Shown: positions 12,714-64,000 of the stretch, piece by piece
Layout: every line of letters starts with the position of its first letter
Numbering within the stretch: the first letter of the stretch is position 1
Source: Kofleriaceae bacterium
Lineage (GTDB): Bacteria; Myxococcota_A; Polyangia; Haliangiales; Haliangiaceae
Reading direction: 5' to 3'
Assembly: GCA_020633495.1 (NCBI GenBank)
Contig: JACKDR010000001.1
Location: 310,105 to 374,104, forward strand
DNA length: 64,000 nucleotides
Program-made: the position numbers and the translations under genes
Notes under the pieces: generated by a model
What the model was told of the DNA's origin: nothing
Databases searched by the model: none
What the model saw: only the letters and a program-made list of their open reading frames with translations

Positions 12714-12715
12714 GG

Positions 12716-15728: not shown

Positions 15729-15754
15729 GCGGTCCGGATCGACATCCGGACCGC
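15729..15754. other. Perfect hairpin GCGGTCCGGAT-CGAC-ATCCGGACCGC (11-bp stem, 4-nt loop) between the diguanylate cyclase stop and the IS element
   Basis: Read directly from the sequence. It is preceded (not followed) by a T-run on the plus strand, so it is not a canonical intrinsic terminator for the plus-strand gene. It may be the IS target or end structure. Confidence 0.6.
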
Positions 15755-17110: not shown

Positions 17111-17198
17111 TCGTGGGCACCGTGGCGGCGAAGCGCCGCCGGCGGACCACCGGTCGCGCGCTCGCCCGTGCCATCCGATCGATAGGATTACAGGCTCT

Positions 17199-17661: not shown

Positions 17662-17662
17662 C

Positions 17663-17707
17663 GTGGTGGACGTGGTGGACGTGGTGGACGTGGTGGACGT
17701 GCTGGAC
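17663..17707. repeat. 9-bp microsatellite (GTGGTGGAC)x4 plus one degenerate unit, immediately 3' of the 107-bp array
   Basis: Read directly: gtggtggacgtggtggacgtggtggacgtggtggacgtgctggac. Confidence 0.9.
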
Positions 17708-18328
17708 GGACGTCGCGTCGGTGCTGGCTCCCGGAGGCCCGGAGAGGGCGGCGGGGATGGTCGGGGTGGTGCGCGGCGCGGCCGGCTGGCCGGCCGGCGC
17801 GGTTGGACGGGGACGCGGGGACGGGGGGGCCGCGGGGCCGTGGGGTGCGGCGCGGTCGGGGCGTGGCTGCGCGGGCTGAGGCTCCGGCCCAGCTGGTCGC
17901 TGGCTCCCCGATGAGCGTGGTGCTGGCGCCGGCGTGGGTGCAGCACACCACCACCGGCGCCGGGCCCGAAGACGGGGGCCCGGCGCCTCGGCGCGGGGCG
18001 CGAGCGTTGCGGGCGCGCGCCGGGCATCGGGATCGCGACGGCCGTGCGAGCCGTGATCGACGCTGTCCGGCAACCGGACAAGAAAGACACGACCCGGGAC
18101 GATCGCGGTCGATTGTCCTTGACGGCGTTCGCGGCCGACGACGACACGCCGACGCGATGCCGCGGCCGATCGTCGACGAGACGCGCAGCGGGGCCCGCTG
18201 CGCCGCGAAGCGGACCGCGACGACGACGCAGAGGGTCGAGAGCGGTCTCGGGGCGCCACGGCGACGACAGGAGGTCCGAGATCGTCGTGGTAGAGAAGGA
18301 ATGCGCGCGTGCGCAGGGAGGAGTGGAG

Positions 18329-20506: not shown

Positions 20507-20889
20507 CCGCGACCCGACGAGCGCTGGTGATCGAGGACTCCCCGACGATGCGCCAGCTGATCACGCTGGCGCTGCGCCGTATCCCGGGGCTGTCGTTCGT
20601 CGAGGCCGCCGACGGCGCCCAGGCGCTCGAGCACCTCGAGCACGACCGCTTCGACGTCGTCCTGCTCGATCTCAACATGCCGGTGATGAACGGCTTCGCG
20701 TTCCTCGAGGCGATGGTCGCCGCGCACCCGCCCGAGGCGCGGCCGCCGGTGATCGTCGTGTCGACCGAGAGCGGCCGCGGCGACGTCCAGCGCGCCACCG
20801 CGCTCGGCGTCGTCGAGTACGTGACCAAGCCGGTCCGGGGTCCGGACCTCGCCGCCGCGGTCAACCGGGTGCTGGCCGCGCGGGCTTGA
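20503..20889 (+). CDS. Single-domain CheY-like response regulator
   Basis: ATG 20503. ALVIEDSPTMRQL...DVVLLDLNMPVMNGFAFLEAM...PVIVVSTE...YVTKP, with the canonical receiver residues D-D...D...T...K. Confidence 0.85.
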   Translation: MTATRRALVIEDSPTMRQLITLALRRIPGLSFVEAADGAQALEHLEHDRFDVVLLDLNMPVMNGFAFLEAMVAAHPPEARPPVIVVSTESGRGDVQRATALGVVEYVTKPVRGPDLAAAVNRVLAARA

Positions 20890-22408
20890 CCACGCCCAGC
20901 GGCACGGCCAGCTCGAAGACGACGCCCTGCCCGGGCGTCGACCGGACCTCGAGGCGGCCGCCCAGGGCCTCGATGTCGGCGCGGGCCGCGGCGTTGCCGT
21001 AGCCGCGGCCCGCGTCCATCGTGACGCCGGCGGCGGTCGACAGCCCGGGGTGGAAGATCAGCTGGTCGAGCGCGGCCGGGGTCGCGGCGGCGGCGGCGGG
21101 GAGGACACCGAGCTCGACCGCGCGCGCCGCCAGCGCGGCGTGGTCGAGGCCGCGGCCGTCGTCCTCGAGGCGGACCCGCAGCTCGCCGCCGTCCTCGCGG
21201 GCCTCGAGCCGGATCGTCCCGGCGGCGGGCTTGCCGGCGGCGATCCGCGCCGCCGCCGGCTCGAGCCCGTGCACGACCGCGTTGCGGACCAGGTGGGGCA
21301 GCGCCTGGGCCAGCGCGGCGTGGACGCTGGGCGGCACCGCGATCGCGCCGCCGACGTGCTCGACGTCGGGGACCTCGCGCGCCGCGGCCTCGGCGGCGGT
21401 CCTCGCGGTGACCCGCAGGTACTCGAAGAGCTGGCCCAGCGGGACCCGGCCCAGCGGATCGATCGCCGCGAGGGCGTCGCGGACGTGGCGCCGCGCCGGG
21501 TGATCGGGCGCCAGCTCGGCGAGCGCGTCCTCGAGCCGTCCCGCCGCGTCGGCGATCGTCGTGGTCAGCTCGAGGCCGCCGCCGCCGTCGCCGACCTCGG
21601 TGAGCCGGCCGCGCAGGACCACCGCGCGCTCGACCGCGCGGCGGAGATCCTCGACCGCGCCGTCGGCGTCGACCCGGTCGGCGAAGCGCCCGGCGGCGCG
21701 GGCCCGGCCCAGCAGCTCCTCGACCGCGTGGGCGCGCCCCGCGATCGAGTTGAGGCCGAGGCCGCGGGCGTTGCCCTTGAGGGTGTGGGTGGCGCGCATG
21801 CCGACGTCGGCGGCGGCGGCGCTGAGGGTGTCGCCGCCGACCAGGGCCGCGACCTCGGCCACCGCCTCGCGCGCCTCGGCCACGAACGACGCGAAGATCG
21901 CGGGCGCGATCGCCAGCAGCTCGTCGAACTGGGCGAGGTCGTCCTCGTGCTCGCGCAGGACCTCGGCGATGCGCCGGCGCAGCCCCTGGTTGGCGGCCTC
22001 GAGCTGGGCCAGCGCGTCCTTGTAGCGCGCGTGCATCCCGACCTCGGCCGAGACGTCGAACAGCGACACCAGCACGCCGACCCGGCCGTCGGCCTGGGTC
22101 ACCGCGGTGGAGCGCGCCGCGACCAGCAGCTCGTCGCCGTCGTCGGCGCCGGGCGCGCGCAGCTCGCGCCAGCGCCCGCCCGGAGACCGCCCGGCGATGA
22201 CGTCGTCGACCAGCGCCGGCCAGGCGTCACCGAGCACCTCCGCGACCCGCGCGATGCGGGCCCGCCGGCCCAGCATCCGGCGCGCGATGTAGGAGAGGTG
22301 CACCAGACTCCCGGCCGGGTCGATCAGAACGAACCCGAGCTGGAGCTGGTCGAGGAAGGGGAGCACCCCGAGGGTGTGCTCCCAGCTGATCGCGTCGTCG
22401 CGCGACAT
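20861..22408 (-). CDS. CheA-like histidine kinase lacking a CheW-like P5 domain (N-terminal PAS-like region, Hpt, HATPase_c)
   Basis: Hpt motif MRATHTLKGNARGLGL. Kinase core HLVRNAVVHGLE...DDGRGLD...GRGYG...GQGVVFEL. Start ATG 22408 (MSRDDAISWEHTL); an alternative upstream ATG exists at 22450. The 3' end overlaps the convergent response-regulator gene by about 29 bp. Confidence 0.75.
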   Translation of the reverse strand: MSRDDAISWEHTLGVLPFLDQLQLGFVLIDPAGSLVHLSYIARRMLGRRARIARVAEVLGDAWPALVDDVIAGRSPGGRWRELRAPGADDGDELLVAARSTAVTQADGRVGVLVSLFDVSAEVGMHARYKDALAQLEAANQGLRRRIAEVLREHEDDLAQFDELLAIAPAIFASFVAEAREAVAEVAALVGGDTLSAAAADVGMRATHTLKGNARGLGLNSIAGRAHAVEELLGRARAAGRFADRVDADGAVEDLRRAVERAVVLRGRLTEVGDGGGGLELTTTIADAAGRLEDALAELAPDHPARRHVRDALAAIDPLGRVPLGQLFEYLRVTARTAAEAAAREVPDVEHVGGAIAVPPSVHAALAQALPHLVRNAVVHGLEPAAARIAAGKPAAGTIRLEAREDGGELRVRLEDDGRGLDHAALAARAVELGVLPAAAAATPAALDQLIFHPGLSTAAGVTMDAGRGYGNAAARADIEALGGRLEVRSTPGQGVVFELAVPLGVVKPARPAPG

Positions 22409-22432
22409 GGACCCCGACGGTTTGTCTGGGCG

Positions 22433-23359
22433 ATGGTACCATGGCGTCACCTCGCAAGGGGGAGCTCAAGGGTGCCGGTCCAGCACGTCCTCGTCTGTCA
22501 GGAGCATCGCATCCCCCTTCCCGAGGGGGTCACCGTCGTCGGGCGTGCGATCGGCTGTGGCATCCGCTTCAACACCGCGACGGTGTCGCGCCAGCACCTG
22601 ATCCTCACCGTGCGCGGCGACCGCCTCACCGCGGAGAGCCTGAGCACGACCACCGGCACGCTGATCAACGGGCGCCGCATGAGCGAGCCCGCGGAGCTCC
22701 GCCACGGCGATCGGATCAGCGTCGGACCGCATCTGCTGGTGATCGACGTCGTCGAGGGCGCGGTCGCCGGGCGCCTGGCGGCGCGCCGCGCGACGTCGTC
22801 GCCGGACGCCGACGACTACGACGAGGACACGATCGCCGGCGAGCCGGCCGAGGTCCTGTCGCTGGACGAGCTCGCCGATCAGCTGCCGCCGACCAAGGCG
22901 ATCCGCACTCACACCTGCCCGAGCTGTCGGGCCCGCGTCGCCTTCACCGAGGCGGTGTGCCGGTCGTGCGGCCACGCCTGGGGCGCCACCGACCCCAGCG
23001 CGATCACCGGCCGGATCACGATGCGCCACATCGTCAACGACGTCCGCCAGGCCACCGAGCCGGCCGCCGCGGTGCCGGTCATCTACGCCAGCGACGAGAT
23101 GACGATCGACGTCACCGTGTCGGAGATGGATCAGGACGGCCTGTTCGTGCCGACCGAGCTGCTCGATCCGGTGGGCACGACCTGCGAGCTGACGGTGCTC
23201 CCCGACGGCCACCCGGCGGTGACGTTCCACGGCCAGGTGCGGCGGGTCCGCGCCAGCGCCGACACCCACGGCCCCGCCGGCCTGTTCATCCACTTCACCG
23301 AGGTCTCCGAGGACGCCGGGCTGTGGCTGGTGCGGCGCCTGCGCCAGCTCGACCGCTGA
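22433..23359 (+). CDS. FHA-domain protein with a C-terminal PilZ-like domain
   Basis: FHA: VQHVLVCQEHRIPLPEGVTVVGRAIGCGIRFNTATVSRQHLILTVRGDRLTAESLSTTTGTLINGRRMSEPAELRHGDRISVGPHLLV. C-terminus: RHIVNDVRQATE...DEMTIDVTVSEMDQDGLFVPT...GLFIHFTE (PilZ-like). The start is either ATG 22433 or GTG 22472 (MPVQHVLV). Confidence 0.75.
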   Translation: MVPWRHLARGSSRVPVQHVLVCQEHRIPLPEGVTVVGRAIGCGIRFNTATVSRQHLILTVRGDRLTAESLSTTTGTLINGRRMSEPAELRHGDRISVGPHLLVIDVVEGAVAGRLAARRATSSPDADDYDEDTIAGEPAEVLSLDELADQLPPTKAIRTHTCPSCRARVAFTEAVCRSCGHAWGATDPSAITGRITMRHIVNDVRQATEPAAAVPVIYASDEMTIDVTVSEMDQDGLFVPTELLDPVGTTCELTVLPDGHPAVTFHGQVRRVRASADTHGPAGLFIHFTEVSEDAGLWLVRRLRQLDR

Positions 23360-50929: not shown

Positions 50930-51904
50930 TCACGGCGGCGTCAGCACCGCGACCGTGGCCTGGGGCTCCCAGGCCAGCTTGTAGGCGCCGCCCGGGATCC
51001 ACAGCGCGCCCGCGATCGCGGCGCCGTGGGTGCCGGCGCGGGCGACCGGGAGCGCCGCCTCGGCACGCCAGGCGTCGCCGCCGAGGTCGTAGACCTCGAC
51101 CACGTGGAGCGCGGCGACGCCGGCCTCGCCACCGGCGCACCACAGCTCACCGGCGAGGACGTCGGCGGCGCAGCCGCCGCGCGCCGTCGGCATCGCGGCC
51201 CGCGCGGTCCACGCCGACGCGCCGGGCGCCAGGGCCAGGACGTCGGCCAGCGGCGCCAGGGCGTCGAGGCCGACGGTGCCGCCGATCACCAGCGCCGCGC
51301 CGTCGGGCGCCCGCGCGCCGACCGCGTGCGACCGCGGCGACGGCAGATCGGGCCGGCGCGACCAGGCGTCGCCGACGGTGTCGTAGGCGAGCACGGTCGC
51401 GACCGAGGCGTCGACGGTCGAGCCGCCGGCGAGGACGACGGTATCGCCGTCGACGATCACCGCGGCGGCGCCGACCTCGGCGCCGGCCGGCATCGCGGCC
51501 AGCGGCCGCCACGCCGTCGCGCCGGGATCGAGGGCCCAGGCGCGGCCATCGGGGACGAAGTCCCGGGTCACCAGGCCGCCGAGCAGGTACAGGGTGTCGC
51601 CGACCGCGGCCAGGTTGGCGTGGGTCAGCGCCACCGGGGTCGCCGGGCCGGGGCGCCAGGCGGCGGCCCCGGGGTCGAGGATCCACGTGTCGGTGACGAC
51701 CTCGAGGCCGTCGTCGAGGCCGCCGACCACCCACAGCGCGTCACCGACCGCCGCGACCGCCGGCTCGAGGCGGCCGCCGGGCAGCGGCGGGCCCTCGGTC
51801 CACGGCGCCGGCTCGGCGTCGGGCGCGGTCGCCGCGTCGCCGCAGCCCGCGGCGGTCAACGCGACCGCACCGGTCACCGACAGCAAGGCGAGGGCGCGGC
51901 GCAC
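50930..51904 (-). CDS. Kelch-repeat (beta-propeller) lipoprotein
   Basis: GTG 51902-51904 (VRRALALLSVTGAVALTAAGCGD, signal plus lipobox). Six repeats with the Kelch pattern (AAVGDALWVVGG, AAVGDTLYLLGG, AAVIVDGDTVVLAGG, RAPDGAALVIGG, ADVLAGELWCAGG, AAIAGALWIPGG). Confidence 0.75.
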   Translation of the reverse strand: MRRALALLSVTGAVALTAAGCGDAATAPDAEPAPWTEGPPLPGGRLEPAVAAVGDALWVVGGLDDGLEVVTDTWILDPGAAAWRPGPATPVALTHANLAAVGDTLYLLGGLVTRDFVPDGRAWALDPGATAWRPLAAMPAGAEVGAAAVIVDGDTVVLAGGSTVDASVATVLAYDTVGDAWSRRPDLPSPRSHAVGARAPDGAALVIGGTVGLDALAPLADVLALAPGASAWTARAAMPTARGGCAADVLAGELWCAGGEAGVAALHVVEVYDLGGDAWRAEAALPVARAGTHGAAIAGALWIPGGAYKLAWEPQATVAVLTPP

Positions 51905-52145
51905 CCCGCCAGGGTAGCGGGGACCGTCGACGAGCGCGAGCCGGCGCGACGCGCGGTGACCGACCGACCGGCCACGATCGGTCGCGGGGGACAGCCCTCC
52001 CCGGGTGCCCACCGCGGTGCGCAGCACGCCGGCGCGCGGCGCGCGTCGACGCCGGCCAACCAGGCGCGGCGGCAGGGTTCGAACCGGGGTTGCGCGACGA
52101 CGCGCGACGCGGCGCCCTGGTCCGCGGTTTGCGAAGCAGCGGCGC

Positions 52146-52943
52146 ATGCATCTCCCCTCCCCCGCCCGCCGGATCCTGCTGGTCGCCACCCTCGCCGCCA
52201 CCCTCCCGCTCGCCGCGTGCGTCGGCGACGCCGGCGGCCCCTTCGAGGACCACGAGGAGGCCAGCGACTACGATCCGGTCCCCGCCGACGACGGCAAGGC
52301 CGACGCGCTGTCCGCCACCTTCGACGATCGCCTGGTCATCCCCGACGACTTCTTCGTCGACGTCGACGCGATCGACGGCGACGGCCTGCAGCAGTTCTTC
52401 GAGACCTCGCCGTACGGCCGCCGGTCGTGGCTCGCCGACGCCAAGGTCGGCGACCTCCGGGCCGCCGATGCGATCGTCGCCGGCGCCCGCGCCGAGGGCA
52501 TCAACCCGCTGGTCATGGTGGCGCGCATGCAGGTCGAGCAGTCGCTGGTCAGCAAGAGCGCGCCGCCGAGCCAGAAGAAGATCGACTACGCGTTCGGCTG
52601 TGGCTGTCCGGACAACCGGCCGTGCAACGAGGCCTACCGCGGCCTCGACAAGCAGATCCAGTGCTCGGCCCACACCCTGGCGCGGTGGTACCAGGGCTCG
52701 ATCGACGGCGACGCCGAGTGGGTCGCGGGCCGCGGCCGCCGCACGCTCGACAAGATCTGGGTCGTGCCCGGCAACCACGCCACCGCGTCGCTGTACGCGT
52801 ACACGCCGTGGGTGCTGCGCGGCAGCGGCGGCAACTGGCTGGTGTGGAACGTGACCCGCAAGATGGAGCGTCACGCCCGCGCCCTCGGCGTCCTCGTCGA
52901 GCCGGCCGTGGATCCGGCGACCGATCCGACCGGCGACCAGTGA
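52146..52943 (+). CDS. Hypothetical lipoprotein (possible cell-wall hydrolase-like domain)
   Basis: ATG 52146 (MHLPSPARRILLVATLAATLPLAACVGD). The conserved-looking region AIVAGARAEGINPLVMVARMQVEQSLVSKS...YAFGCGCPDN is not assigned to a family with confidence. Confidence 0.55.
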   Translation: MHLPSPARRILLVATLAATLPLAACVGDAGGPFEDHEEASDYDPVPADDGKADALSATFDDRLVIPDDFFVDVDAIDGDGLQQFFETSPYGRRSWLADAKVGDLRAADAIVAGARAEGINPLVMVARMQVEQSLVSKSAPPSQKKIDYAFGCGCPDNRPCNEAYRGLDKQIQCSAHTLARWYQGSIDGDAEWVAGRGRRTLDKIWVVPGNHATASLYAYTPWVLRGSGGNWLVWNVTRKMERHARALGVLVEPAVDPATDPTGDQ

Positions 52944-54026: not shown

Positions 54027-55082
54027 CTACAGGAACCGCAGCCGCGCCGCCAGCTCGTCGAGGGGCGCGACCTCGTCGATCGCGCCGGCCTCGATCGCCG
54101 CCTTCGGCATGCCGAAGATCACGCTGCTCTGCTGGTCCTGGGCCAGGGTCTTGCCGTCGGCGCGCTTGATCGCCAGGGCCCCGGCGGCGCCGTCCTTGCC
54201 CATGCCGGTCATGACCACGCCGATGGCGCGGCGGCCGTAGACCCGGGCCGCCGAGATCATCGTGACGTCGGCGGCCGGCCGGCAGCCGTGGACCAGCTCG
54301 CCGTCGGTGAGGACGACCGCGCCGCGCTCGTCGAACTCGACGTGGCGATCGCCGGGGGCGATCAGCGCCAGGCCCGGCGTCGGGCGATCGCCGGCGGCGG
54401 CCTCGCGCACGGTCAGCTGGCTGATCGCGTCGAGCCGCTCGGCCAGCGCCGCGGTGAAGTGCGCCGGCATGTGCTGGACGATCACGACCGCGAAGCGGCT
54501 GTCGCCGGGCAGCGCCGGCACCAGCTCCGACAGCGCCGCCGGCCCCCCGGTCGACACCGCGATCACGCACAGCCGTGGCAGGCCGCCCGGCATCGTCGTG
54601 CTGCCGATCCCGGCCAGGCTGGCCCGGCGCGCGCTCGCCGCCGGCGCCGCCGCGGCGCGCGGCCGCGACGCCGCGGCGATCGTCAGCTTGCGGGTCAGCT
54701 CGACGGCGATCTTGCTGAGGTCGGCCGAGACCTCGCCGGCGGGCTTGGTGACGAAGTCGACCGCGCCGGCGGCCAGCGCCTCGAAGGTCTCGCGCGCGCC
54801 CTGCCGGGTGTGGGCCGAGAACATCAGCACCGGCGTCGGCCGCCGCTGCATGATCGCGCGCACCGCCTCGGCGCCGTTCATCTCGGGCATGTTGAAGTCC
54901 ATCGTGACGACGTCGGGGCCCAGCGCGACCACCTGGTCGACCGCCTCGCGGCCGTTGCGGGCCTGGCCGACGACCTCGAACGGCCCGGCCGCCAGGGTCT
55001 TGGCGATCGCGGCGCGCATGAACAGCGAGTCGTCGACGATCAGGACCCGGATCTTCCTCGCGCTCGGCTGCGACGGTCTCAC
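54027..55082 (-). CDS. cheB: Chemotaxis response regulator protein-glutamate methylesterase
   Basis: GTG 55080-55082 overlapping the upstream cyclase stop (GTGA). REC: IRVLIVDDSLFMRAAIAKTL...VVTMDFNMPEMNGAEA. Methylesterase: VIAVSTGGPAAL...VVIVQHMPAHFT...GVVMTGMGKDGAAG...SSVIFGMPKAA (catalytic S-H-D). Confidence 0.9.
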   Translation of the reverse strand: MRPSQPSARKIRVLIVDDSLFMRAAIAKTLAAGPFEVVGQARNGREAVDQVVALGPDVVTMDFNMPEMNGAEAVRAIMQRRPTPVLMFSAHTRQGARETFEALAAGAVDFVTKPAGEVSADLSKIAVELTRKLTIAAASRPRAAAAPAASARRASLAGIGSTTMPGGLPRLCVIAVSTGGPAALSELVPALPGDSRFAVVIVQHMPAHFTAALAERLDAISQLTVREAAAGDRPTPGLALIAPGDRHVEFDERGAVVLTDGELVHGCRPAADVTMISAARVYGRRAIGVVMTGMGKDGAAGALAIKRADGKTLAQDQQSSVIFGMPKAAIEAGAIDEVAPLDELAARLRFL

Positions 55083-56848
55083 GACGGCTCCTCCGGCGGT
55101 GGCGGCAGCCGCTCGACCACCCAGCCGGTGACCGGGATCGCGACGCCCTTGAGCTCGAGCCCGGGCACCGCCCGGACCACCGCGCCGTCGCCGAGGAAGG
55201 CGCGGGTCGACTCGCTGACCAGGACCTCGCCGGGCGGGCACCGGGTCTCGTAGCGGTTGGCACGGTTGACGGTGTCGCCGATCACCGTGTAGTCGCGGCG
55301 CACCACCCGCGACCCCAGGTCGCCGCGCACGACCGGCCCGGTGTTGACGCCGATCCGCATCTGCAGCGTGATCGGCCGGCCCTGGTTGAACGCGGGCATC
55401 GCGGCCTGCATCGCCAGCGCGGCGCGGGTGGCGCGGACCGCGGCGGGCTCGCGGCCCCGGCGCTCCTCGAAGATCGCCATGATCGCGTCGCCGATGAACT
55501 TGTCGATGTCCCCGCCGAGGTCCTTGATCAGCGGACACATGACGTCGAAGTAGGCGTTGAGCAGCTCGATGACGCCGCGCGGATCGAGGCGCTGCGACAT
55601 GGGCGTGAACCCGACCAGGTCGCTGAACATGACCGTGACCTCGCGCTCGTCGGCGCGCACCGCGTGCAGCGCGCCGACCGCGGCGCGCTCCTCGGCGGCG
55701 TGGCGCGCGCCCTCGGAGATGAACAGCGACGACGCCTCCTTGTAGGCGAGCAACCGGCGCTCGGCCAGCGTGCGCTCGACCATCGCCACGCACTTGTCCT
55801 GCGAGAACGGCTTGACCAGGTACGCCGACGCGCCGGCGGCGCGCATCTGGGCCATGTCGCGCTTGGAGTCGCGCGCGGTCAGCATGATCACCGGGGTCTG
55901 GCGCAGCTCGGGATCGCGGCGCACCGCGTGGACCAGCTCGAAGCCGGTCATCTCCGGCATCTCGTAGTCGCTGACGATCAGCGCCGGGCGCAGCGCCTGG
56001 GCCTTGTCGAGCGCGACCCGGCCGTTCTCGGCGGTCGCGACGTCGAAGCCCTGGCGGCTGAGGCAGTCGGCGACGTAGTGGCGCTGCGCGGGCGAGTCAT
56101 CGACCACCAGGATCCGCTCGCGCGACGACGGCGTCGCGCCGATCGCCAGGGCCCGGACCCGGGTCGCCAGCTCCTCGGGGACGACCGGCTTGACCAGGTA
56201 GTCGTCGGCGCCGGCGTCGAAGCCGCGCTCGAGATCGGCGGCCTCGCCGAGGCTCGAGCAGATCAGCACCGGGACGTGGGCGGTCGCGGGGTCGGCCTTG
56301 AGCCCCTTGCACACGCCGTAGCCGTCGAGCTGCGGCATCTCGACGTCGGTGATCACCAGGTCGGGCTGGCGGGCGCGGGCCAGGGCCAGGGCCTCGGCGC
56401 CGTCGTAGGCCGACACGACCTCGTAGCCCTCGTCCTCGAGGATCGGCACGGTGTGGCGGTGGATCAGCGGCGAGTCGTCGGCCAGCAGCACCAGCTTCCT
56501 GGCCCGGGTGCCGGCGCCGAGGACGTCGACGACCTCGGCGTCGGAGAACGGCACCAGCAGGAAGCCGTCGGCGTCGAGGTCGCGGGCGATCGCGCGATCG
56601 GCGGCGGCGACGCCGACGACGATCGCCGCGACCGGGGTCGGGCCGTCGCGCAGCGCGGCGACGACGTCGGCGAGGACGCCGTCGGGCAGGCGGCGCGGCA
56701 GCAGCGCGGCGCGCGGCGTCAGCTCGCCGAGGCGATCGAGCAGCTCGGCCGCGGACGCGACCCGGCTGACCTGGTGGCCGAGCGGCGTCAGCGGCCGCGC
56801 GATCAGCTCGGCCAGGACCGGCTCGTCGGAGACGACGACGACGTTCAC
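55079..56848 (-). CDS. Triple-receiver (one degenerate REC plus two canonical REC) adenylate/guanylate cyclase (class III CHD)
   Basis: GTG 56846-56848 with a GGAGG RBS 6 nt upstream; overlaps the cheA stop (GTGA). REC2: KLVLLADDSPLIHRHTVPILEDEGYEVVSAYDG...DLVITDVEMPQLDG...YLVKP. REC3: RILVVDDSPAQRHYVAD...IVSDYEMPEMTG...YLVKP. CHD: VTVMFSDLVGFTP...KFIGDAIMAIF...RIGVNTGPVVRGDLG. The 5' 2/3 of the supplied 1323-aa ORF is a wrong-frame artefact opposite cheA. Confidence 0.85.
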   Translation of the reverse strand: MNVVVVSDEPVLAELIARPLTPLGHQVSRVASAAELLDRLGELTPRAALLPRRLPDGVLADVVAALRDGPTPVAAIVVGVAAADRAIARDLDADGFLLVPFSDAEVVDVLGAGTRARKLVLLADDSPLIHRHTVPILEDEGYEVVSAYDGAEALALARARQPDLVITDVEMPQLDGYGVCKGLKADPATAHVPVLICSSLGEAADLERGFDAGADDYLVKPVVPEELATRVRALAIGATPSSRERILVVDDSPAQRHYVADCLSRQGFDVATAENGRVALDKAQALRPALIVSDYEMPEMTGFELVHAVRRDPELRQTPVIMLTARDSKRDMAQMRAAGASAYLVKPFSQDKCVAMVERTLAERRLLAYKEASSLFISEGARHAAEERAAVGALHAVRADEREVTVMFSDLVGFTPMSQRLDPRGVIELLNAYFDVMCPLIKDLGGDIDKFIGDAIMAIFEERRGREPAAVRATRAALAMQAAMPAFNQGRPITLQMRIGVNTGPVVRGDLGSRVVRRDYTVIGDTVNRANRYETRCPPGEVLVSESTRAFLGDGAVVRAVPGLELKGVAIPVTGWVVERLPPPPEEPS

Positions 56849-59025
56849 GTCGCCTCCGGGTCGCCGTGGCCGAGCAGGCGCCGCACCGCGCGCAGCAGGA
56901 GCTGCCGGTCGTGGGGCTTGGTGATGTACTCGTCGACGCCGGCGTCGAAGCCGCGGACCCGGTCGATGCGCTCGCCGCGCGACGTCACCATGACGATCGG
57001 CGTGTCGGCGTACTCGGGCAGCGCGCGCAGCGCGCGGGTCAGCTCGTAGCCGTCCATCCGCGGCATCATGACGTCGGTCGAGATCAGATCGAAGGCGCGG
57101 CTGCGGGCCAGCTCGAGGCCGTGGACGCCGTCGACCGCGACGGTCACCAGGTAGCCGGCGTCGACCAGCAGGCGGCGCAGCGACTCGCGCACGGTGTCGG
57201 AGTCCTCGACCAGGAGGACGTGCGAGCCCGACGGCGCCGCCGGGCGGGCGCCGGCGCGGCGCGGCCCGACCGGGCCGCTGAGCGCGCGCGCGACGATCGC
57301 CGGGACGTCGAGGATCAGCGCGCAGCGATCGCCGAGCAGCGTGGCGCCGGCGACGCACGGCGCCGCCGCCAGCAGCGGGCCCAGCGACTTGATGACGATC
57401 TCCTTCTTGCCCAGCAGGTGGTCGCAGACCAGGCCGTAGGTGGTGCCGGCGTGCTCGGTGAGGATCAGGTGCAGGACGTCGGCGTGGGCGCCGCCCGCGA
57501 GGTCGAGGTCGAGGACGTGGTCGAGGCGGATCAGCGGGACGTGGCGGCCGCGGACCTCGACCACCTCGCGGTCGCCGATCAGCCGGACGTCGCCGGGCGC
57601 GATCGTCAGGACGCGGAGGACGACGTCGAGCGGCACCGCGAAGGTCTCGCCGCCGGCGCGGGCCACGATGACCTGGATGATCGCGAGGGTGAGGGGCATG
57701 CGCAGCACGAAGGTGCTCCCTTGGCCGGGGGTGGACTCGACGTCGATCGTGCCCTTGAGCCGGGTCACGATGGTCTGGCGGACGACGTCCATCCCGACGC
57801 CGCGCCCCGACACCTGGCTGATCGTCGCCGCGGTCGAGAACCCGGCGGAGAAGATCAGCTCGAGCGAGCCGCGCTCGTCGAGGTCGGCGGCGGCCGCCGC
57901 GGTCAAGAGGCCCTTGTCGACCGCCTTGGCGCGCAGCCGCGCCGGATCCATGCCGCGGCCGTCGTCGGCGATCCGGATCTCGACGGTGTTGCCGCGGTGC
58001 GACGCCTCGAGCCGGACCACGCCCTCGGGCGGCTTGCCGGCGGCGGCGCGGCCCTCGGGGTCCTCGAGGCCGTGGTCGACGGCGTTGCGCACCAGGTGCA
58101 TCAGCGGCTCGTCGAGGGCCTCGACCAGCAGCTTGTCGAGCTCGGTGTCGTCGCCGATCAGCTCGAGGCGAGCGCGCTTGCCCAGCGATCCGGCGAGGTC
58201 GCGCACGGTGCGGACGTGCTTGCGGAAGACGCCGCCGACCGGGACCAGGCGCAGCCGCATGACCTGCTCGCGCAGCTCGCCGGAGATCAGATCGAGCCGG
58301 TCGGTGCCGTGATCGAGGTCGTGGGCGATCTCGCCCAGCACGCGCTCGATGCGGTCGAGCTCGTCGCCGAGCGCGCTGACGCTGGCGGCGGCGCCCGCGC
58401 CGCCACCGCCGCCGCCGCGCGCGACCGCGGCCCGCCGCGCCATGACCCGATCGCCGGCGAGCTCGTGGCCGATCGCGGTGAGCGACCCGACCGCGACCCG
58501 CAGGTCGTCGCGCCCGAGCACCAGCTCGCCGACCAGGTTGAGCAGGCGGTCGAGCTTGTCGAAGTCGACGCGGATGGTCTGGCGCGACGGGTCGTGGGCG
58601 GCGGGGCGCGCGGACTCGACGCCGGCCGCCGCCGGCGTGACCGCGACCGGCGGCGAGGCCGCCGCCGCGGCCGGGTTGCGTAGCCGCTGCACCACCGGCG
58701 CCGGATCGACCGTGACCGGCGCACCGTCGCGGGCCTGCGCCAGCATCGCGCGCAGCGCGTCGAGCGCGGCCAGCAGCGCGTCGATCACCGGGGCGTCGGC
58801 GGCGCGGCCGGCGTCGCGGATCTGGCCGACCAGATCCTCGGCGGCGTGGGCGAGCTGGTTGACCGGGGCCAGGCCGACCATCGCCGAGCTGCCCTTGACG
58901 GTGTGGAGGTCGCGGAAGACGTCGCGCAGCAGCTCGACGTCGCCGGGCCGGCGCTCGACCTCGACCAGCTTGCCGGCCAGGGCCTCGAGCCGCTCGCCGG
59001 CCTCGTCGAAGAACAGCTCGATCAT
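56845..59025 (-). CDS. cheA: Chemotaxis histidine kinase CheA with a C-terminal receiver domain (CheA-CheY hybrid, FrzE-like)
   Basis: ATG 59023-59025 (MIELFFDEAGERLEAL...LHTVKGSSAMVG, Hpt P1). P3/P4: LVRNAVDHGLE...DDGRGMD...GRGVGMDVV. P5 CheW-like: AIIQVIVARAGGETFAVPLDVV. REC: VLLVEDSDTVRESL...LISTDVMMPRMDGYEL...YITKP. The supplied ORF extends in frame to 59559, but the 59026-59559 segment is a three-frame mosaic (see findings). Confidence 0.85.
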   Translation of the reverse strand: MIELFFDEAGERLEALAGKLVEVERRPGDVELLRDVFRDLHTVKGSSAMVGLAPVNQLAHAAEDLVGQIRDAGRAADAPVIDALLAALDALRAMLAQARDGAPVTVDPAPVVQRLRNPAAAAASPPVAVTPAAAGVESARPAAHDPSRQTIRVDFDKLDRLLNLVGELVLGRDDLRVAVGSLTAIGHELAGDRVMARRAAVARGGGGGGAGAAASVSALGDELDRIERVLGEIAHDLDHGTDRLDLISGELREQVMRLRLVPVGGVFRKHVRTVRDLAGSLGKRARLELIGDDTELDKLLVEALDEPLMHLVRNAVDHGLEDPEGRAAAGKPPEGVVRLEASHRGNTVEIRIADDGRGMDPARLRAKAVDKGLLTAAAAADLDERGSLELIFSAGFSTAATISQVSGRGVGMDVVRQTIVTRLKGTIDVESTPGQGSTFVLRMPLTLAIIQVIVARAGGETFAVPLDVVLRVLTIAPGDVRLIGDREVVEVRGRHVPLIRLDHVLDLDLAGGAHADVLHLILTEHAGTTYGLVCDHLLGKKEIVIKSLGPLLAAAPCVAGATLLGDRCALILDVPAIVARALSGPVGPRRAGARPAAPSGSHVLLVEDSDTVRESLRRLLVDAGYLVTVAVDGVHGLELARSRAFDLISTDVMMPRMDGYELTRALRALPEYADTPIVMVTSRGERIDRVRGFDAGVDEYITKPHDRQLLLRAVRRLLGHGDPEAT

Positions 59026-59555
59026 GTCGTCGTCGACGGTGGGGGTCCACGCGAACCCGGCCGCCGCGGCGCCGGCGGGGACGGCCGCGGCGACCGGCGC
59101 GGCGACGTCGCGAGGCGCCGCCGTCGGGGCCGGCGGCGGCACGGCCCGGTGCCGCGCGCGGGCGCGCGCGGCGTGGCCGCTGCGGTCAGGGGCGTCGAGC
59201 GCGGCGCAGCGGTCGTCGAGGGCAGGCCCTCGACCCGGGCCCCCTGACCGGTCGGGCTGGCCAGCTGCGCGATGGCCTGGCGCAGGGTCGCGGCGGCCGC
59301 GATCACCGCCGGCGCCGCGGCCGCGACCTCGACGGCGCCGCCGTCGATCGCGTCGAGGCCGCGCTCGAGCGCGAGCGCGAGCCGGCCGACGTCCTCGGCG
59401 CCGACCAGCAGGCTCGACAGCCTGGAGCCGGAACGCGACGTGGGCGAGGCCGCCGCAGGCGCTGGCGCCGAGCGCGCCCGCGACGTCGTCGTCGAGCAGC
59501 GCCGCGTCGTGGACCGCGGCGGCGACGAACGTGTCCCACAGCGACACGCCCTCGC

Positions 59556-59822
59556 TCATGGCGCCTCCCCGGCGTCGCCGAGGCCGTGGCGGCGCAGCCA
59601 GCGCCGGGCGCCGGCCCGGGTCGCGCGCAGCGACAGCGTGACGCCGGCGGCCGCGGCGGCGGCGCGGGCGCGGCGCAGGATCGGCGCGACCTCGTCGGGG
59701 ACCAGCTCGGCGTCGTCGAGATCGACCGCCAGCCGGTGCAGCCTGGGCGCGGCCAGCAGCGCGGTGAGGTCGGCGGTGAGGCGCTCGGGATCACAGCGGC
59801 CACGCACGCGCAGCTCGCGCGC
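59556..59822 (-). CDS. STAS-like (anti-sigma-factor-antagonist-like) domain ORF; either a separate small gene lacking an obvious start or the frameshifted C-terminus of cheR
   Basis: Own translation: ...AAAGPEARELRVRGRCDPERLTADLTALLAAPRLHRLAVDLDDAELVPDEVAPILRRARAAAAAAGVTLSLRATRAGARRWLRRHGLGDAGEAP*. The frame is -1 relative to cheR. The stop overlaps the next ATG (ATGA at 59556-59559). The only in-frame start candidate is an internal GTG, which would truncate the fold. Confidence 0.35.
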   Translation of the reverse strand, partial: ARELRVRGRCDPERLTADLTALLAAPRLHRLAVDLDDAELVPDEVAPILRRARAAAAAAGVTLSLRATRAGARRWLRRHGLGDAGEAP

Positions 59823-60019
59823 CTCCGGGCCTGCCGCCGCGGGCGGCGTCGCGGCCGCCGGGGGCGTCGTCGCGGCCGCCGGCCGCGCCGCGACCGCCGC
59901 GCCGCGCGCCGGCCCAGGCCGGGGCCGGCCGGCGCGCGCGTCGCCGGCGTCGCGGCCACCGCGATCCTGGCCGCCGGCGTCCGCCGCGCGCCCGCGACCG
60001 TCGTTGGCGCGACCGCGCC

Positions 60020-60802
60020 GGGGGCGCGGCGCACGTAGACCGTGGCGTCGCCGGCGCGGCGGGGCTCGAGGTCGGCGACGTCGCGCAGGCTCTCGCTGTA
60101 GCCGACGAACAGGAAGCCGCCGGGATCGAGCGCCGCGACCAGCCGATCGACGACGCGGCGCCGGGCCTCGGCCTCGAAGTAGATGAGGACGTTGCGGCAC
60201 CACACCAGATCGAAGCCGCGCGGCTGATCGTCGTCGGCGAGGTTCTTGCGCTCGAAGCGGACCAGGCGGCGGGCCTCCGGGCGGACCCGCACGACCTCGT
60301 CGTCGACCTCGAAGCCGTCGCGCCAGGCCTCCGGCACGTGCTCGAGCGCCGCCGCCGGGTAGGTGGCCGCGGTCGCGACCTCGAGCGCGCCGGCGCTGAC
60401 GTCGGTGGCGAGGATCGTCACCGCGTGCTGCGGCAGCAGCCGGGCCAGCACGACCGCCAGCGTGTACGGCTCCTCGCCGGTGGCGCAGCCGGCGCTCCAC
60501 ACCTTGACCGGCCGGCGCCCGCGCGCCCTCAGCGCCGGCGCGACGACGTCGACCAGCGCCGCGACCTGCGGCAGGTGGCGGAACAGCCGGGTCTCGCCGA
60601 CCCGCACCGCCTCGACCAGGACGCCGAGCTCGGCGGCGCCGCGCGGCGCGCTGACCAGCTCGAGGTACGCCGCCGGGGTCGCGCCGAGCGCGGCGATCCG
60701 CGCCTGCGCCCGCGACGCCACCACCCACGCCGGCAGCTCGAGCCCGGCGTGAGCGGCGAGCCGTCGCGACAGCCCCGCCACGATGTCGGCGGGCAGCGTC
60801 AC
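60020..60802 (-). CDS. cheR: Chemotaxis protein methyltransferase CheR (catalytic portion; 3' end unresolved, since the in-frame ORF runs on to 59303 as low-complexity sequence)
   Basis: GTG 60800-60802 directly abutting the MCP stop. LFRHLPQVAALVDVV...VKVWSAGCATGEEPYTLAVVL...ILATDVSAGAL...LVWCRNVLIYFEAE...GGFLFVGYSESL, the SAM-dependent MTase CheR motifs. Good sequence ends at about ...DATVYVRRAPGAVAPTTVAG. Confidence 0.75.
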
Positions 60803-62959
60803 CTACCCGCGTCCGCCCGGCGGCCGACCGTCGGATCCGGCGCCGCCGCCGGGCCCGGCGGCGCGGGCCGGCAACCGGCGCGCCTCGCCGCGGCCGGCGA
60901 GCTGGCGATCGCCGGCGGCGCCGCCGCCGGCGGGCGCGCCGCCCGGTGCCCAGGTGTTGCCGTCGAGGTTGAAGCCGCCGATCGACGCCTCGAGCTGGAA
61001 CGCCAGCTCGTGCAGCCGCTCGGCCTGCACGACCGACTCCTCGGAGCCGGTCAGGATCTCGTTGGCGATGTGCTGGACCGCGTCCATGTTGCGCGCGATG
61101 TCGTCGGACACCACCGCCTGCTCCTGGACCGCGTGGGCGGTGTCCTTGACCACGCCGATGAGCTGGGTCAGCCCGGTCAGGGTCGAGGTCACCAGCTGGG
61201 TGCCGTTCTCGACCTCGCGGGTGCCGGTCTCCATCGACGCCACCGCCTCCTGGGTCTGCTCCTTGATCGTCTGGATCAGCGCCTCGATGTCCTTGGCCGA
61301 CTGGCCGACCCGGCGCGCCAGCGACGACACCTCGTCGGCGACCACCGCGAAGCCGCGGCCCTGCTCGCCGGCGTGCGCCGCCTCGATCGACGCGTTGAGC
61401 GCCAGCATCGAGGTCTGCTCGCTGATCTGCCGGATGACCTCGACGATGTTGCCGATGCGCTTGCTGCTCTCGCCGAGCTCCTTCATCTTGCGCGCGGCGT
61501 CCTCGACGGCGCCGCGGATCTCCTGCATCCGCTGCACCGCGGAGCCGACCGCGACGTTGGACTGCTCGGCGACGTCGGTGGCCTCGGCGGCGTTGCCGGC
61601 GACCTGCTGGATCGACGCCGACAGCTCGGTGATCGCCGCGGTCGAGCCCTCGATCTTGAGGGTCTGATCCTTGAGCCCGCCCAGGGTCTGGCGCGACGCC
61701 GCGCTGATCTCGGCGCTCGAGGCGCCGACCTGGAACGACGCCGCCTGGACCTCGGTGGCCAGGCTGTGGACCCGCGCGAACACCTGGTTGATGTTGTCGG
61801 CGAGGTCGGCGGTCTCGTCGCGCGACTCGACCACGATGCGCTGGTTGAGATCGGTCTCGCCGGCCAGCAGGTCGCGCGACTGCTTGACGAACTGCTTGAT
61901 CGGCCGCGTGATCCAGAACGCCATCAGCGACGCGATCCCCACCGACAGGCCGATGCCGACCAGGATCTCCCGCCACGGGACCTTCGACGGGTCGACGATG
62001 CTGGCCCGGCTGCGGGTGATGAACAGCTGGCCGACGACCTGGGGATCGAGGCCGACGTAGCCCTCGAGATCCTCGGCGTAGAAGTCGTGGTCGCCGCTCT
62101 TGAGGCGCACGACCTTGCGGGTGTCCTCGCCGATCGTCACGGTCGCGAACCGCTCGGGCTGCATCGCCTTGCCCAGCTCGCCCCAGCTGTCGGCCGGGAA
62201 CGCCGACGCCAGCACGGTGGTGCCGGCGAGCAGCGTCGGCCGCATCCGCATGTCCTGGTTGTCGTCGCTCTGCTCGGCGTACTCGTCGAAGTAGCGCTGC
62301 AGCTTGACGCCGATCAGCAGGCCGCCGACCACGGTCTCGCCGTCGGCGGCGTGGACCGGCAGCGCCGAGACCTGGTACGGCACGCCGCCGATGACGACGA
62401 CCCGGTGGGCGAAGACGTTGCCGGCGCGGGCCTTGTCGACCGGCGCCAGCTCGGCGAGGTCGCCCTGCTTGATCGGCGAGCCCGGGATCGCCCAGACCAG
62501 GCGGTTGCCGGCGGTGAACGCCGCGAACAGATCGGGCTGCAGGCCGTTCTTCGAGGCCAGCCGGGTGTACATGCCCTGGACGATGCGCGCCGCGGCGGCG
62601 AAGCGGTCGCCGGGCCGGGTCGGCGTGGCGGTGGCGCCCGCGCCGTCGGCCGCGGCCGCGCCGTCGCCGGCCGGGCCCGACGGCGGCTCCGGCGCCGGGC
62701 CCGCGCCCGGCGCCGCGAGCGCGGCGGCCAGCGTCGGATCGTCGGCGAGGATCTCCAGCGTCCCGGTCATGCCGCGGCCGACCCGCTCCTGGTAGCCCAG
62801 GTAGCGGCGCTCGTGCTTGGCCAGCCAGTTGCCCCGGGCGCGGTAGCGGGTCTCGCTCTGCAGCCACAGCGTGCCGCCGGCGATCAGCAGCGCGGCCAGG
62901 GTCAGGCAGGCGACCAGGAACTTGAAGAACATGGGGAAGCGGAGCTTCCGCTTGCTCAT
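60803..62959 (-). CDS. Methyl-accepting chemotaxis protein (2 TM, periplasmic sensor about 300 aa, HAMP, MCP signalling domain)
   Basis: ATG 62957-62959 overlapping the cheW stop (ATGA). TM1 FFKFLVACLTLAALLIAGGTLWL. TM2 ILVGIGLSVGIASLMAFWI. HAMP. Highly conserved signalling domain: EQTSMLALNASIEAAHAGEQGRGFAVVADEVSSLARRVGQSAKDI. Stop TAG at 60803-60805. The Gly/Pro-rich C-terminal tail may reflect an over-extended ORF. Confidence 0.85.
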   Translation of the reverse strand: MSKRKLRFPMFFKFLVACLTLAALLIAGGTLWLQSETRYRARGNWLAKHERRYLGYQERVGRGMTGTLEILADDPTLAAALAAPGAGPAPEPPSGPAGDGAAAADGAGATATPTRPGDRFAAAARIVQGMYTRLASKNGLQPDLFAAFTAGNRLVWAIPGSPIKQGDLAELAPVDKARAGNVFAHRVVVIGGVPYQVSALPVHAADGETVVGGLLIGVKLQRYFDEYAEQSDDNQDMRMRPTLLAGTTVLASAFPADSWGELGKAMQPERFATVTIGEDTRKVVRLKSGDHDFYAEDLEGYVGLDPQVVGQLFITRSRASIVDPSKVPWREILVGIGLSVGIASLMAFWITRPIKQFVKQSRDLLAGETDLNQRIVVESRDETADLADNINQVFARVHSLATEVQAASFQVGASSAEISAASRQTLGGLKDQTLKIEGSTAAITELSASIQQVAGNAAEATDVAEQSNVAVGSAVQRMQEIRGAVEDAARKMKELGESSKRIGNIVEVIRQISEQTSMLALNASIEAAHAGEQGRGFAVVADEVSSLARRVGQSAKDIEALIQTIKEQTQEAVASMETGTREVENGTQLVTSTLTGLTQLIGVVKDTAHAVQEQAVVSDDIARNMDAVQHIANEILTGSEESVVQAERLHELAFQLEASIGGFNLDGNTWAPGGAPAGGGAAGDRQLAGRGEARRLPARAAGPGGGAGSDGRPPGGRG

Positions 62960-63447
62960 GGCGATGCACCTTCCTCTCGGGCCAGGGCGCCGAGACGTTG
63001 CGACGAGAACAGGGCGTCGCCGTCGAGCACGCGCACGGTGCCGGTCGGCGTGGCGATCACGCCGGCGAGCAGGCTCGCGACCTCGGGCGCCAGGTTGGCG
63101 GGCGCGGCCTCGACGGCGTCGGCGTCGACGGTGCGCAGCTCGCGCAGGCGCTCGACCAGGATGCCGACGACCCGGGCGCCGTGCTCGACGACGACGAGCC
63201 GGCCGTCGTCGCCGGGGACGGTCCGGGGCAGGCCGAGCAGGACCCCGAGGTCGACCGCCGGCACGATGTCGCCGCGCAGGCTGAAGATGCCGGCCAGCCA
63301 CGGCGGGCTCAGGAACACCCGCGTGATGGGCCGCAGGGTCAGGGTCTCGCGGACGTCCTCGATCGGGAGCGCGAGCTCCTGGCCGCGCAGCTCGAAGCAG
63401 ACCAGGCGCAGCGAGCCCGAGGCGACACCGGTGGAGCCCTCGACCAT
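62956..63447 (-). CDS. cheW: Chemotaxis coupling protein CheW
   Basis: ATG 63445-63447 (MVEGSTGVASGSLRLVCFELRGQELALPIEDVRETLTLRPITRV...LAGIFSLRGDIVPAVDLG...VVVEHGARVVGILVERLRELRTVD), the CheW-like domain. Confidence 0.85.
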   Translation of the reverse strand: MVEGSTGVASGSLRLVCFELRGQELALPIEDVRETLTLRPITRVFLSPPWLAGIFSLRGDIVPAVDLGVLLGLPRTVPGDDGRLVVVEHGARVVGILVERLRELRTVDADAVEAAPANLAPEVASLLAGVIATPTGTVRVLDGDALFSSQRLGALAREEGASP

Positions 63448-63458
63448 GCGCCCCGAGG

Positions 63459-64000
63459 CTATCCCGGCTCGCGCAGCACCGTCCAGCGGCGCGCCCGGAC
63501 GGTTTCGACGAGGCCCTTGACGTCGAGATCGACGTCCTCGAGCGCCGCGCCCTGCCCGGCCAGCCACGCCGCCACCCCGGGGGCGGCCAGCGTGGCCTCG
63601 CTGACAGCCACCTGCCAGGCCTCGGCGGCGGCCTGCAGCTTGGCGGCCACGTTGACGGCGTTGCCGAAGTAGTCGATCGCGGCGTTGAGGCGGACCGCGA
63701 TGCACGGGCCGGTGTTGATCGAGATGCGCAGCCGGATCGCGGCGGCGCCGCGGCCGGGCGGGAACGCGGCGTGGATCGCGGCGGCGGCCCGGACCGCGTC
63801 GAGCGGATCGTTGAACGCGCCCATCGCGGCGTCGCCGATGGTCTTGACGACGGCGCCGCGGTGGGCGCCGATGATGCGGAAGACCTCGTCGAAGTGGCGC
63901 TTGACCTCGACGAACGCGGCCGGATCGCCGCGCTCGGCGTACATCGCGGTCGAGCCGACGACGTCGGTGAACAGGATCGTCTGCTCGCCGACCGCGAGCT
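63459..64000 (-). CDS. Adenylate/guanylate cyclase catalytic-domain protein, C-terminal part only (gene continues beyond the window end)
   Basis: Minus-strand ORF 63459..63944 continues past 64000: ...FVEVKRHFDEVFRIIGAHRGAVVKTIGDAAMGAFNDPLDAVRAAAAIHAAF...RISINTGPCIAVRLNAAIDYFGNAVNVAAKL, the class III cyclase core motifs. Confidence 0.7.
   Translation of the reverse strand, partial: LAVGEQTILFTDVVGSTAMYAERGDPAAFVEVKRHFDEVFRIIGAHRGAVVKTIGDAAMGAFNDPLDAVRAAAAIHAAFPPGRGAAAIRLRISINTGPCIAVRLNAAIDYFGNAVNVAAKLQAAAEAWQVAVSEATLAAPGVAAWLAGQGAALEDVDLDVKGLVETVRARRWTVLREPG

Follow-up and report, generated by a model that had tools for sequence, protein, structure and literature searches.

To our knowledge, the second-messenger outputs that are understood for chemosensory (che) pathways are only cyclic di-GMP (c-di-GMP), through WspR in the Wsp system, and cyclic AMP (cAMP), raised indirectly through CyaB in the Pil-Chp system. 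Here, we describe a che gene cluster at one end of a 64,000-nucleotide (nt) stretch of the genome of a Kofleriaceae bacterium (GenBank assembly GCA_020633495.1, contig JACKDR010000001.1; the whole stretch is hereafter referred to as the window), in which a protein made of three receiver (REC) domains and a class III nucleotidyl cyclase domain (CHD) is encoded between cheA and cheB. We consider it probable that this cluster is a non-motility che operon with a class IIIb adenylate cyclase as its dedicated response regulator. Kofleriaceae (Myxococcota, Haliangiales) are gliding, non-flagellated bacteria, which fits a non-flagellar role of the pathway, and the host is a soil myxobacterium. If this reading is true, direct phosphorylation of an adenylate cyclase by CheA would add a third paradigm for che outputs, one of simple mechanism, and would offer a handle on cAMP signaling in non-flagellated, gliding myxobacteria that have many che clusters and cyclases.

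The Wsp system of Pseudomonas (WspA to WspF plus WspR), which falls in the class of alternative cellular function (ACF) systems, likewise has one methyl-accepting chemotaxis protein (MCP), CheR, CheB, and a CheA-receiver hybrid, and it lacks CheY and flagellar genes. The response regulator of that pathway likewise joins a receiver and a helical stalk to a palm-fold cyclase that makes a second messenger. The output domain there is GGDEF, making c-di-GMP, whereas here it is a class III adenylate cyclase with cAMP as the predicted product; Wsp has one receiver and two CheW-like proteins (WspB and WspD), compared with three receivers and one CheW here. The systems also differ in gene order, in the length class of the MCP (40H there and 38H here), and in the STAS-like tail of CheR that is found here. 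By analogy, the cluster would work like Wsp without being a member of that system. A preceding reading made from the sequence alone (the sequence-only reading) had likened the locus to Wsp-type ACF systems; a second-messenger enzyme acting as the pathway's own regulator is still the best reading of it, whereas formal membership of the ACF class is not established, given the 38H receptor.

Pil-Chp of Pseudomonas aeruginosa, of the type IV pilus (Tfp) class, is likewise a chemosensory pathway that raises cAMP. It does so indirectly, with the single-domain PilG influencing the separate CyaB, whereas the cyclase here is fused to receivers and encoded within the cluster, and the pil genes and multi-Hpt ChpA of that system have no counterpart here. 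The enzyme itself resembles CyaC of Spirulina/Anabaena and other receiver-fused class IIIb cyclases, including myxobacterial ones, which likewise have a Lys-Thr specificity pair and a receiver directly N-terminal of the cyclase domain (for CyaC, 35 to 36% identity and template modeling [TM] scores of 0.81 to 0.86 to 1WC0/1WC1). Phosphorylation of the adjacent receiver activates CyaC. CyaC includes histidine kinase and GAF domains in the same protein and has no link to che genes, in contrast to the pseudo-receiver, two receivers, and separate CheA found here. PleD of Caulobacter (REC-REC'-GGDEF) likewise places receivers in tandem, of which one serves as an adaptor that cannot be phosphorylated, before a palm-fold, dimerizing cyclase; it differs in catalytic family and product, in having the active rather than the degenerate receiver first, and in being served by the kinases DivJ and PleC rather than by CheA.

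A che cluster with a receiver-class III cyclase regulator has been catalogued before. Munoz-Martinez et al. (2012; Table S2; PMC3447774) list a REC-CHD "mononucleotidyl cyclase" regulator (D8FCI6) in a cheR-TPR che cluster of the delta proteobacterium NaphS2, which also appears in their main text and in their legend on fused domains; the entry comes without residue, conservation, or functional analysis. It differs from the protein described here in its single REC and in the CheR-TPR fusion of its cluster, and the likeness drawn here is one of catalogued architecture. In the full-text literature searched, we found no characterized CheA-to-adenylate-cyclase pathway, only the work on Pil-Chp/CyaB and this 2012 entry. 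The earlier statement that no well-characterized example was known is thus upheld, with the amendment that the architecture was already catalogued, and we regard the feature as an uncharacterized variant of an alternative-function che system with second-messenger output rather than as something categorically new.

A che cluster on the minus strand

Because the high G+C content of the window (~75%) crowds raw lists of open reading frames (ORFs) with spurious frames, genes were resolved by frame analysis of G+C at third codon positions (GC3) together with translation across junctions and Pfam searches. They form a single minus-strand series at 54027-64000, given here in the direction of transcription (aa, amino acids):

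>64000..63459, minus: cyc2, a second cyclase gene, 3' part; Pfam Guanylate_cyc, 2.2e-17
63447..62956, minus: cheW, 163 aa; Pfam CheW, 6e-32, profile positions 2-137/138
62959..60803, minus: MCP, 718 aa, transmembrane; Pfam HAMP and MCPsignal, two transmembrane segments
60802..59921, minus: cheR methyltransferase domain and start of a low-complexity linker; Pfam CheR, 3e-47, aa 70-244
59816..59556, minus: STAS-like segment, ~86 aa, in a frame different from that of the methyltransferase part; 47% identical to the C-terminus of CheR in the related locus L002
59559..56845, minus: cheA-receiver hybrid, annotated 904 aa; Pfam Hpt, H-kinase_dim, HATPase_c, CheW-like, and Response_reg
56848..55079, minus: REC-REC-REC-cyclase, 589 aa; Response_reg over three stretches, 1e-64, and Guanylate_cyc, 2.5e-28
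55082..54027, minus: cheB, 351 aa, REC (Asp62) and methylesterase; Pfam CheB_methylest, 4.6e-63, and Response_reg

The sequence-only reading had described a che-type gene set packed on this strand, and its gene content and order were confirmed, with Pfam bearing out every che gene assignment and the architecture of the cyclase. The pathway core is complete, in that the MCP, CheW, CheA (Hpt, dimerization, ATPase, and CheW-like domains), CheR, and CheB are all well above Pfam thresholds; CheB is also above the cutoff of the NCBIfam CheB subfamily. By gene content, the cluster has no CheY, CheZ, CheC, CheD, CheX, or flagellar genes, and tblastn searches with the second and third receivers of the cyclase protein (REC2 and REC3) detected no single-domain receiver gene in 54-64 kb. 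Stop and start codons had been said to overlap at nearly every junction; they do so at four of six, as ATGA (cheW/MCP and STAS-like segment/cheA) or GTGA (cheA/cyclase and cyclase/cheB). At the MCP/cheR junction, TAG is followed directly by GTG with no overlap, and an 11-nt spacer separates cyc2 from cheW. The next gene after cheB, across a 53-nt gap, encodes an aldo/keto reductase.

Three receivers and an intact cyclase domain

The REC-REC-REC-cyclase protein is divided as follows:

56848..56510, minus: REC1, aa 1-113, pseudo-receiver; P51, G79, and V99 at the Asp, Thr, and Lys positions
56500..56144, minus: REC2, aa 117-235, canonical; D124, D125, D168, S198, and K220; Pfam Response_reg
56122..55769, minus: REC3, aa 243-360, canonical and CheY-like; D250, D251, D294, T324, and K346
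55768..55655, minus: helical linker and cyclase-transducer-like segment, aa 361-398; AlphaFold2 (AF2) helices 350-374 and 379-391
55654..55079, minus: class IIIb adenylate cyclase domain, aa 399-581, with a short tail and the stop; Pfam, residues, and Foldseek

Judged by its residues, the cyclase domain is an intact class IIIb adenylate cyclase. It scores 99.4 bits against Guanylate_cyc (PF00211; cutoff, 21.9), its metal-binding Asp residues D410 (FSD) and D454 (IGD) align with those of CyaC, CyaB, and Cya2, and the transition-state residues N528 and R532 are present in VNRANR; R498 is also listed among the residues of the domain. The substrate-specifying pair is Lys-Thr (K450 and T521), the same as in the adenylate cyclases CyaC (1WC0) and CyaB (3R5G), and for this reason cAMP rather than cyclic GMP (cGMP) is the predicted product. 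The earlier wording, "cAMP/cGMP," can therefore be narrowed: K450 and T521 favor cAMP, and the Glu that the guanylate cyclase Cya2 has in place of this Lys speaks against cGMP.

Among 120 homologs at 75 to 81% identity, the five-residue sets of both REC2 and REC3 are invariant, including the phospho-acceptors D168 and D294, the conservation of which the sequence-only reading had proposed as a check. In the same set, D410, K450, D454, and R532 are invariant, and T521 and N528 each deviate in a single sequence. A loss of catalytic residues, which by the sequence-only reading would have refuted the proposal, is not seen; the six catalytic or specificity residues are present and conserved. The REC1 sites are always non-canonical in these homologs (G79 is constant, and P51 and V99 show a few substitutions) and are variable in distant relatives. 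In 35 relatives at 25 to 75% identity, the cyclase residues and the Asp and Lys of REC3 are largely kept.

An AF2 model built on an alignment of diverse homologs (mean predicted local distance difference test [pLDDT] score, 89.5) has three receiver folds, a last helix of REC3 that runs to residue 374, a helix at 379-391, and the cyclase domain. REC1 adopts a confident receiver fold in this model even though it lacks the phospho-acceptor set, so that Pfam, residues, and AF2 agree with the composition first proposed: one degenerate and two canonical receivers fused to a class III cyclase domain. Compared with the PDB over its whole chain, the model most closely resembles PleD (REC-REC-GGDEF; Foldseek E value, 4e-23), and the cyclase domain matches Cya2, CyaC, and CyaB with Foldseek TM scores of 0.82 to 0.88. 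By sequence, the best PDB matches of REC2 are the PleD and RpaA receivers and those of REC3 are CheY proteins (E values of ~1e-22 to 1e-18). In the linker, the family consensus carries a YLS motif where the window has FISEGA. An NCBI entry labeled "response regulator" is 100% identical to the protein, and no specific NCBIfam model matches either the protein or the che class.

Linkage of the cyclase to che genes in relatives

A homolog search of 1.84 billion representative proteins returned dozens of end-to-end relatives among the matches listed (570 to 640 aa; 26 to 55% identity); the taxonomic distribution drawn from it is a sample of genome and metagenome matches and not a census. The order cheW-MCP-cheR-cheA/REC-cyclase-cheB is found in L002 (75% identity; 2.7-Mb contig), L003 (69%), and L098 (55%), and L097 (56%) has MCP-cheR-cheA-cyclase-cheB from the start of its contig. 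On the short contigs L093 and L095, cheA lies directly upstream of the cyclase. Two loci have the cyclase-cheB pair alone (L096, 59%, at 9959-12855; L099, 50%, at 7857-11718), with the other che genes not in the available flanks of up to 10 kb and, in L096, genes for an aldehyde dehydrogenase and a GAF-GGDEF protein upstream. This suggests either split clusters or a special relationship between the cyclase and CheB.

At greater divergence, the linkage is kept in rearranged clusters: MCP-cheW-cheA-cheB-cyclase in L083 (41%), cyclase-cheA...MCP-cheR-cheB in L100 (41%), cheB-cheR-cyclase in L004 (39%), cheW-cheA-cyclase in L006 (31%; SAR324), and MCP-cyclase in L086/87 (30%; marine). The CheA of L083 has P2 and lacks a receiver, and no CheY gene was called on that contig; the regulators there are CheB and the cyclase protein only, and the latter is the sole candidate output. 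Called genes overlap by 4 nt in their coordinates at cheA/cyclase/cheB in L002 and at cheB/cyclase in L083. In L005 (37%; Gemmatimonadota), the upstream sequence is too short to judge che linkage. At least ~70 loci whose CHD protein is REC-REC-CHD or of another architecture (Bacteroidota, cyanobacteria, and others) have no che gene within 10 kb.

Because the linkage survives rearrangement and divergence to ~30% identity and is accompanied by 4-nt overlaps, the comparison of loci speaks strongly for the cyclase as a component of the che pathway. The same persistence, at ~30% identity and in rearranged clusters, strengthens the Wsp-like logic. We give even odds to the broader proposal that REC-REC-REC-adenylate cyclases mark a widespread, ancient che class, spanning Kofleriaceae, other Myxococcota, SAR324, and others, in which the receptor array directly sets cAMP.

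Receptor, kinase, and methyltransferase

The MCP has transmembrane segments at residues ~8-34 and ~331-351 that enclose a periplasmic domain of ~295 aa and are followed by HAMP and signaling domains. This ligand-binding domain is probably of the Cache type, and probably a double Cache: sCache profile matches are weak, the AF2 model is poor (pLDDT, 52.5), its Foldseek matches are all Cache sensors, and the homolog search gave six relatives. The signaling domain has a symmetric +7/+7 residues relative to Tsr and -7/-7 relative to PcaY, which we take to be of the 36H and 40H length classes, respectively. Aligned in this way, the MCP is 38H, one heptad per arm above Tsr and one below PcaY. The published pairing is of ACF systems with 40H receptors and of F5 systems with 38H receptors (PMC10746217, PMC8429497). 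At 38H, the receptor departs from the ACF length of 40H (scheme of Wuichet and Zhulin as in MiST), yet features typical of ACF, if not strictly defining, are present: no CheY/Z/C/D/X or flagellar genes, a CheA-REC, and a multidomain output regulator. We use ACF here as a functional description; formal class membership is not established.

CheA consists of a P1 Hpt domain (His219), dimerization (P3), ATPase (P4), and CheW-like (P5) domains, and a C-terminal REC (Asp829), with no P2. Ahead of the canonical P1 is a degenerate Hpt-like helical extension of ~110 aa (59559-59142; L002, 7314-7640; also in L097), which in L002 matches Pfam Hpt with an E value of 0.006. A second phosphorelay His in this extension was considered; the window and L002 have this His, whereas L097 has Ala in its place, and the candidate was rejected. 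On account of this replacement, the N-terminal domain is probably degenerate. Reading of the extension starts in frame 1, moves to frame 2 over 59423-59142, and returns to frame 1, as indicated by GC3 and by the match of the L002 and L097 N-termini to frame -2. The annotated 904 aa accordingly include an Arg-rich, out-of-frame stretch of ~95 aa, with switches at ~59425 and ~59200-59140.

In contrast to the initial description of cheR and a STAS-like ORF as two genes, the two parts are a single gene in relatives (401 to 402 aa in L002 and L098; 394 aa in L003), split in the window by an apparent frameshift. The switch lies in the low-complexity linker at ~59915-59960; by tblastn, the CheR of L002 matches frame -1 only to 59921, and the frame as it stands continues in a junk tail to 59303, giving a 499-aa "CheR." The STAS-like C-terminus of ~85 aa is also found in L002 (~7060-7317), L003, and L098 and is absent from the CheR of L100 and L004. 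Its assignment to STAS is weakly supported: the segment in the window reaches Pfam STAS_2 with an E value of 0.038 (14.6 bits, below the cutoff of 29.2), that of L003 reaches Pfam STAS with 1.3e-4 (22.1 bits, just below the cutoff of 22.6), and hhalign places the domain in register with SpoIIAA/RsbV (E value, 0.003) at a probability of only 10%. The usual phosphorylatable Ser is lacking. We know of no described CheR-STAS fusion; the known CheR fusion is CheR-TPR. If true, a CheR-STAS fusion would add a new control on adaptation.

Proposed mechanism

In the pathway that we propose, a ligand would bind the periplasmic domain of the MCP (probably Cache type), and the MCP, via CheW, would control autophosphorylation of CheA at His219. 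Phosphorylated CheA could then pass the phosphoryl group to Asp294 of REC3, Asp168 of REC2, or both, which would rearrange the stacked receivers and the helical linker running on from REC3. REC1, not being phosphorylatable, may act as a structural or adaptor domain like the second receiver of PleD. In class III cyclases, dimerization is obligatory, and the active sites lie at the interface. Here, two cyclase domains would come together, or shift in register, to give the catalytic homodimer, which would convert ATP to cAMP; by analogy with PleD and WspR, phosphorylation most plausibly promotes or re-registers dimerization. CheR and CheB (Asp62) would provide receptor adaptation by methylation, and both the receiver of CheA (Asp829), as a sink or tuning element, and CheB (Asp62) may compete for phosphoryl groups. 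We infer the phosphotransfer from CheA, the accepting receiver, the sign of activation, the cAMP product, and the downstream effectors alike.

If this mechanism is true, a methylation-adapted receptor array would set cAMP through cyclase phosphorylation, a cAMP counterpart of Wsp, and two phosphorylatable receivers could allow signal integration or ultrasensitivity. The cyclase protein is soluble, 589 aa long, and confidently modeled, with its key residues identified, so that the hypothesis is directly testable, and synteny offers many orthologs.

Alternative explanations

Several observations weigh against a dedicated cyclase output. Experimental phosphotransfer or cyclase regulation in a pathway of this kind was not found in the literature searched, and among the remaining ~35 genes of the 64 kb, Pfam searches turned up none for a cNMP-binding protein, a CRP-like protein, or a phosphodiesterase. 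The receiver of CheA could itself be the main phospho-acceptor. The absence of a stand-alone CheY, as first reported, holds for 54-64 kb, but a stand-alone receiver of 129 aa is encoded at 20500-20889 (plus strand), 33 kb from the che cluster. Full-length family members without che neighbors exist in L084/85 (34%) and L088/89 (26%), and because of these the cyclase family can work with other kinases. Finally, comparison with intact orthologs points to three apparent frame changes in a stretch of ~830 nt (59140-59960), and if they are real this gene copy may be impaired.

The alternative that fares best, although we judge it unlikely, is that the cyclase protein serves chiefly as a phosphate sink or for adaptation, that the real output is the receiver of CheA or a regulator elsewhere, and that cAMP is made constitutively or is otherwise controlled. 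Several receivers in one pathway often serve as sinks, as in multi-CheY systems, and both candidates that this view needs are at hand, in the complete receiver domain of CheA and the stand-alone receiver protein of the window. Catalytic residues as (near-)invariant as those of the cyclase would be unexpected of a mere sink, however, and the CheA of L083 has no receiver for this role. The 3' end of the stand-alone receiver gene convergently overlaps that of a gene for a CheA-like kinase with Hpt and HATPase_c domains (20861-22450, minus strand), in which no dimerization or CheW-like domain is detectable; given this overlap, the receiver probably belongs to that adjoining kinase rather than to the che cluster.

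Comparably unlikely, in our estimate, is that this copy of the cluster is decaying or non-functional, its CheR split and ~95 aa of the CheA N-terminus scrambled by the three frame changes, which are not present in the intact orthologs of L002, L003, L097, and L098. The CheR methyltransferase domain, the P1, P3 to P5, and REC domains of CheA, the cyclase, and CheB are nevertheless intact and share the same codon bias (GC3, 0.9 to 1.0), and the cyclase protein recurs unchanged in the independent assembly GCA_020431345.1 (L001). The frame changes fall in low-complexity linkers and in the 2-kb bin with the highest G+C content in the window (58001-60000; 79.9%), and the two in CheA restore the frame, as is typical of assembly indels. 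Given this bin, the intact catalytic domains, and a genome that was assembled from a metagenome, we suspect assembly indels more than decay.

That the cyclase answers to an unrelated histidine kinase and sits in a che cluster by accident of neighborhood is very improbable. The che-less family members, and the very many kinases and cyclases of myxobacteria, would allow for it, but the linkage persists through at least five gene orders and includes SAR324 and unclassified lineages, and the cyclase gene is translationally coupled on both sides. Just as remote is a product such as cGMP or another nucleotide. The Pfam family covers adenylate and guanylate cyclases, and the closest PDB sequence match of the domain is the guanylate cyclase Cya2 (2W01). 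In Cya2, however, Glu occupies the position of Lys450, the Lys450/Thr521 pair is that of CyaC and CyaB, and the homologs keep K450 in 120/120 and T521 in 119/120. A dedicated adenylate cyclase output is thus the reading that we retain.

The second cyclase gene

The cyclase gene next to cheW (cyc2) is cut by the end of the window at 64000, and its architecture is taken from homologs. Orthologs of 360 to 415 aa combine DUF5939 with Guanylate_cyc (PF19363 and PF00211), and the family (including L090, 2-715) is common in Kofleriaceae-like metagenomes. The protein has a Lys/Asp adenine pair and, where the transition-state Arg is expected, a Lys (NVAAK). Because only 11 nt separate it from cheW, cyc2 is probably co-transcribed with the che cluster in this genome, and the position first given for it, directly upstream of cheW, is correct. 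We rejected it as a conserved part of the che system: sarcosine-oxidase-like genes and no cyc2 lie upstream of the L002 cluster, and no che gene is near the orthologs (69 to 71% identity) of L173 and L174.

Other features of the window

A Kelch-repeat gene at 50930-52267 is syntenic with one downstream of the L002 cluster (in the region 13028-17709 of L002), where it is followed by two genes for T2SSE (PilB/PilT-type) ATPases that are not present in the window. The stand-alone receiver and its adjoining kinase gene form part of a phospho-signaling module at 19715-23359, together with genes for a weak-GAF protein (19715-20506) and a protein with FHA and weak PilZ domains (22478-23359, plus strand).

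At 28463-33205 (plus strand), a gene for a Ser/Thr protein kinase with a CHASE domain (728 aa) is followed, with zero intergenic gap, by one for an 851-aa protein that matches the Major Vault Protein (MVP) shoulder (2e-26), a Vault_3 repeat, and SPFH/Band_7. The latter is a bacterial MVP-like protein, apparently coupled to the receptor kinase. Genes for a GGDEF protein (14393-15709) and an HNH-endonuclease-domain protein (17915-19546) flank a DUF772 transposase-domain ORF (15762-16748), all on the plus strand, and GC skew is locally positive at 16-20 kb; the region at 14393-19546 may be a mobile-element insertion.

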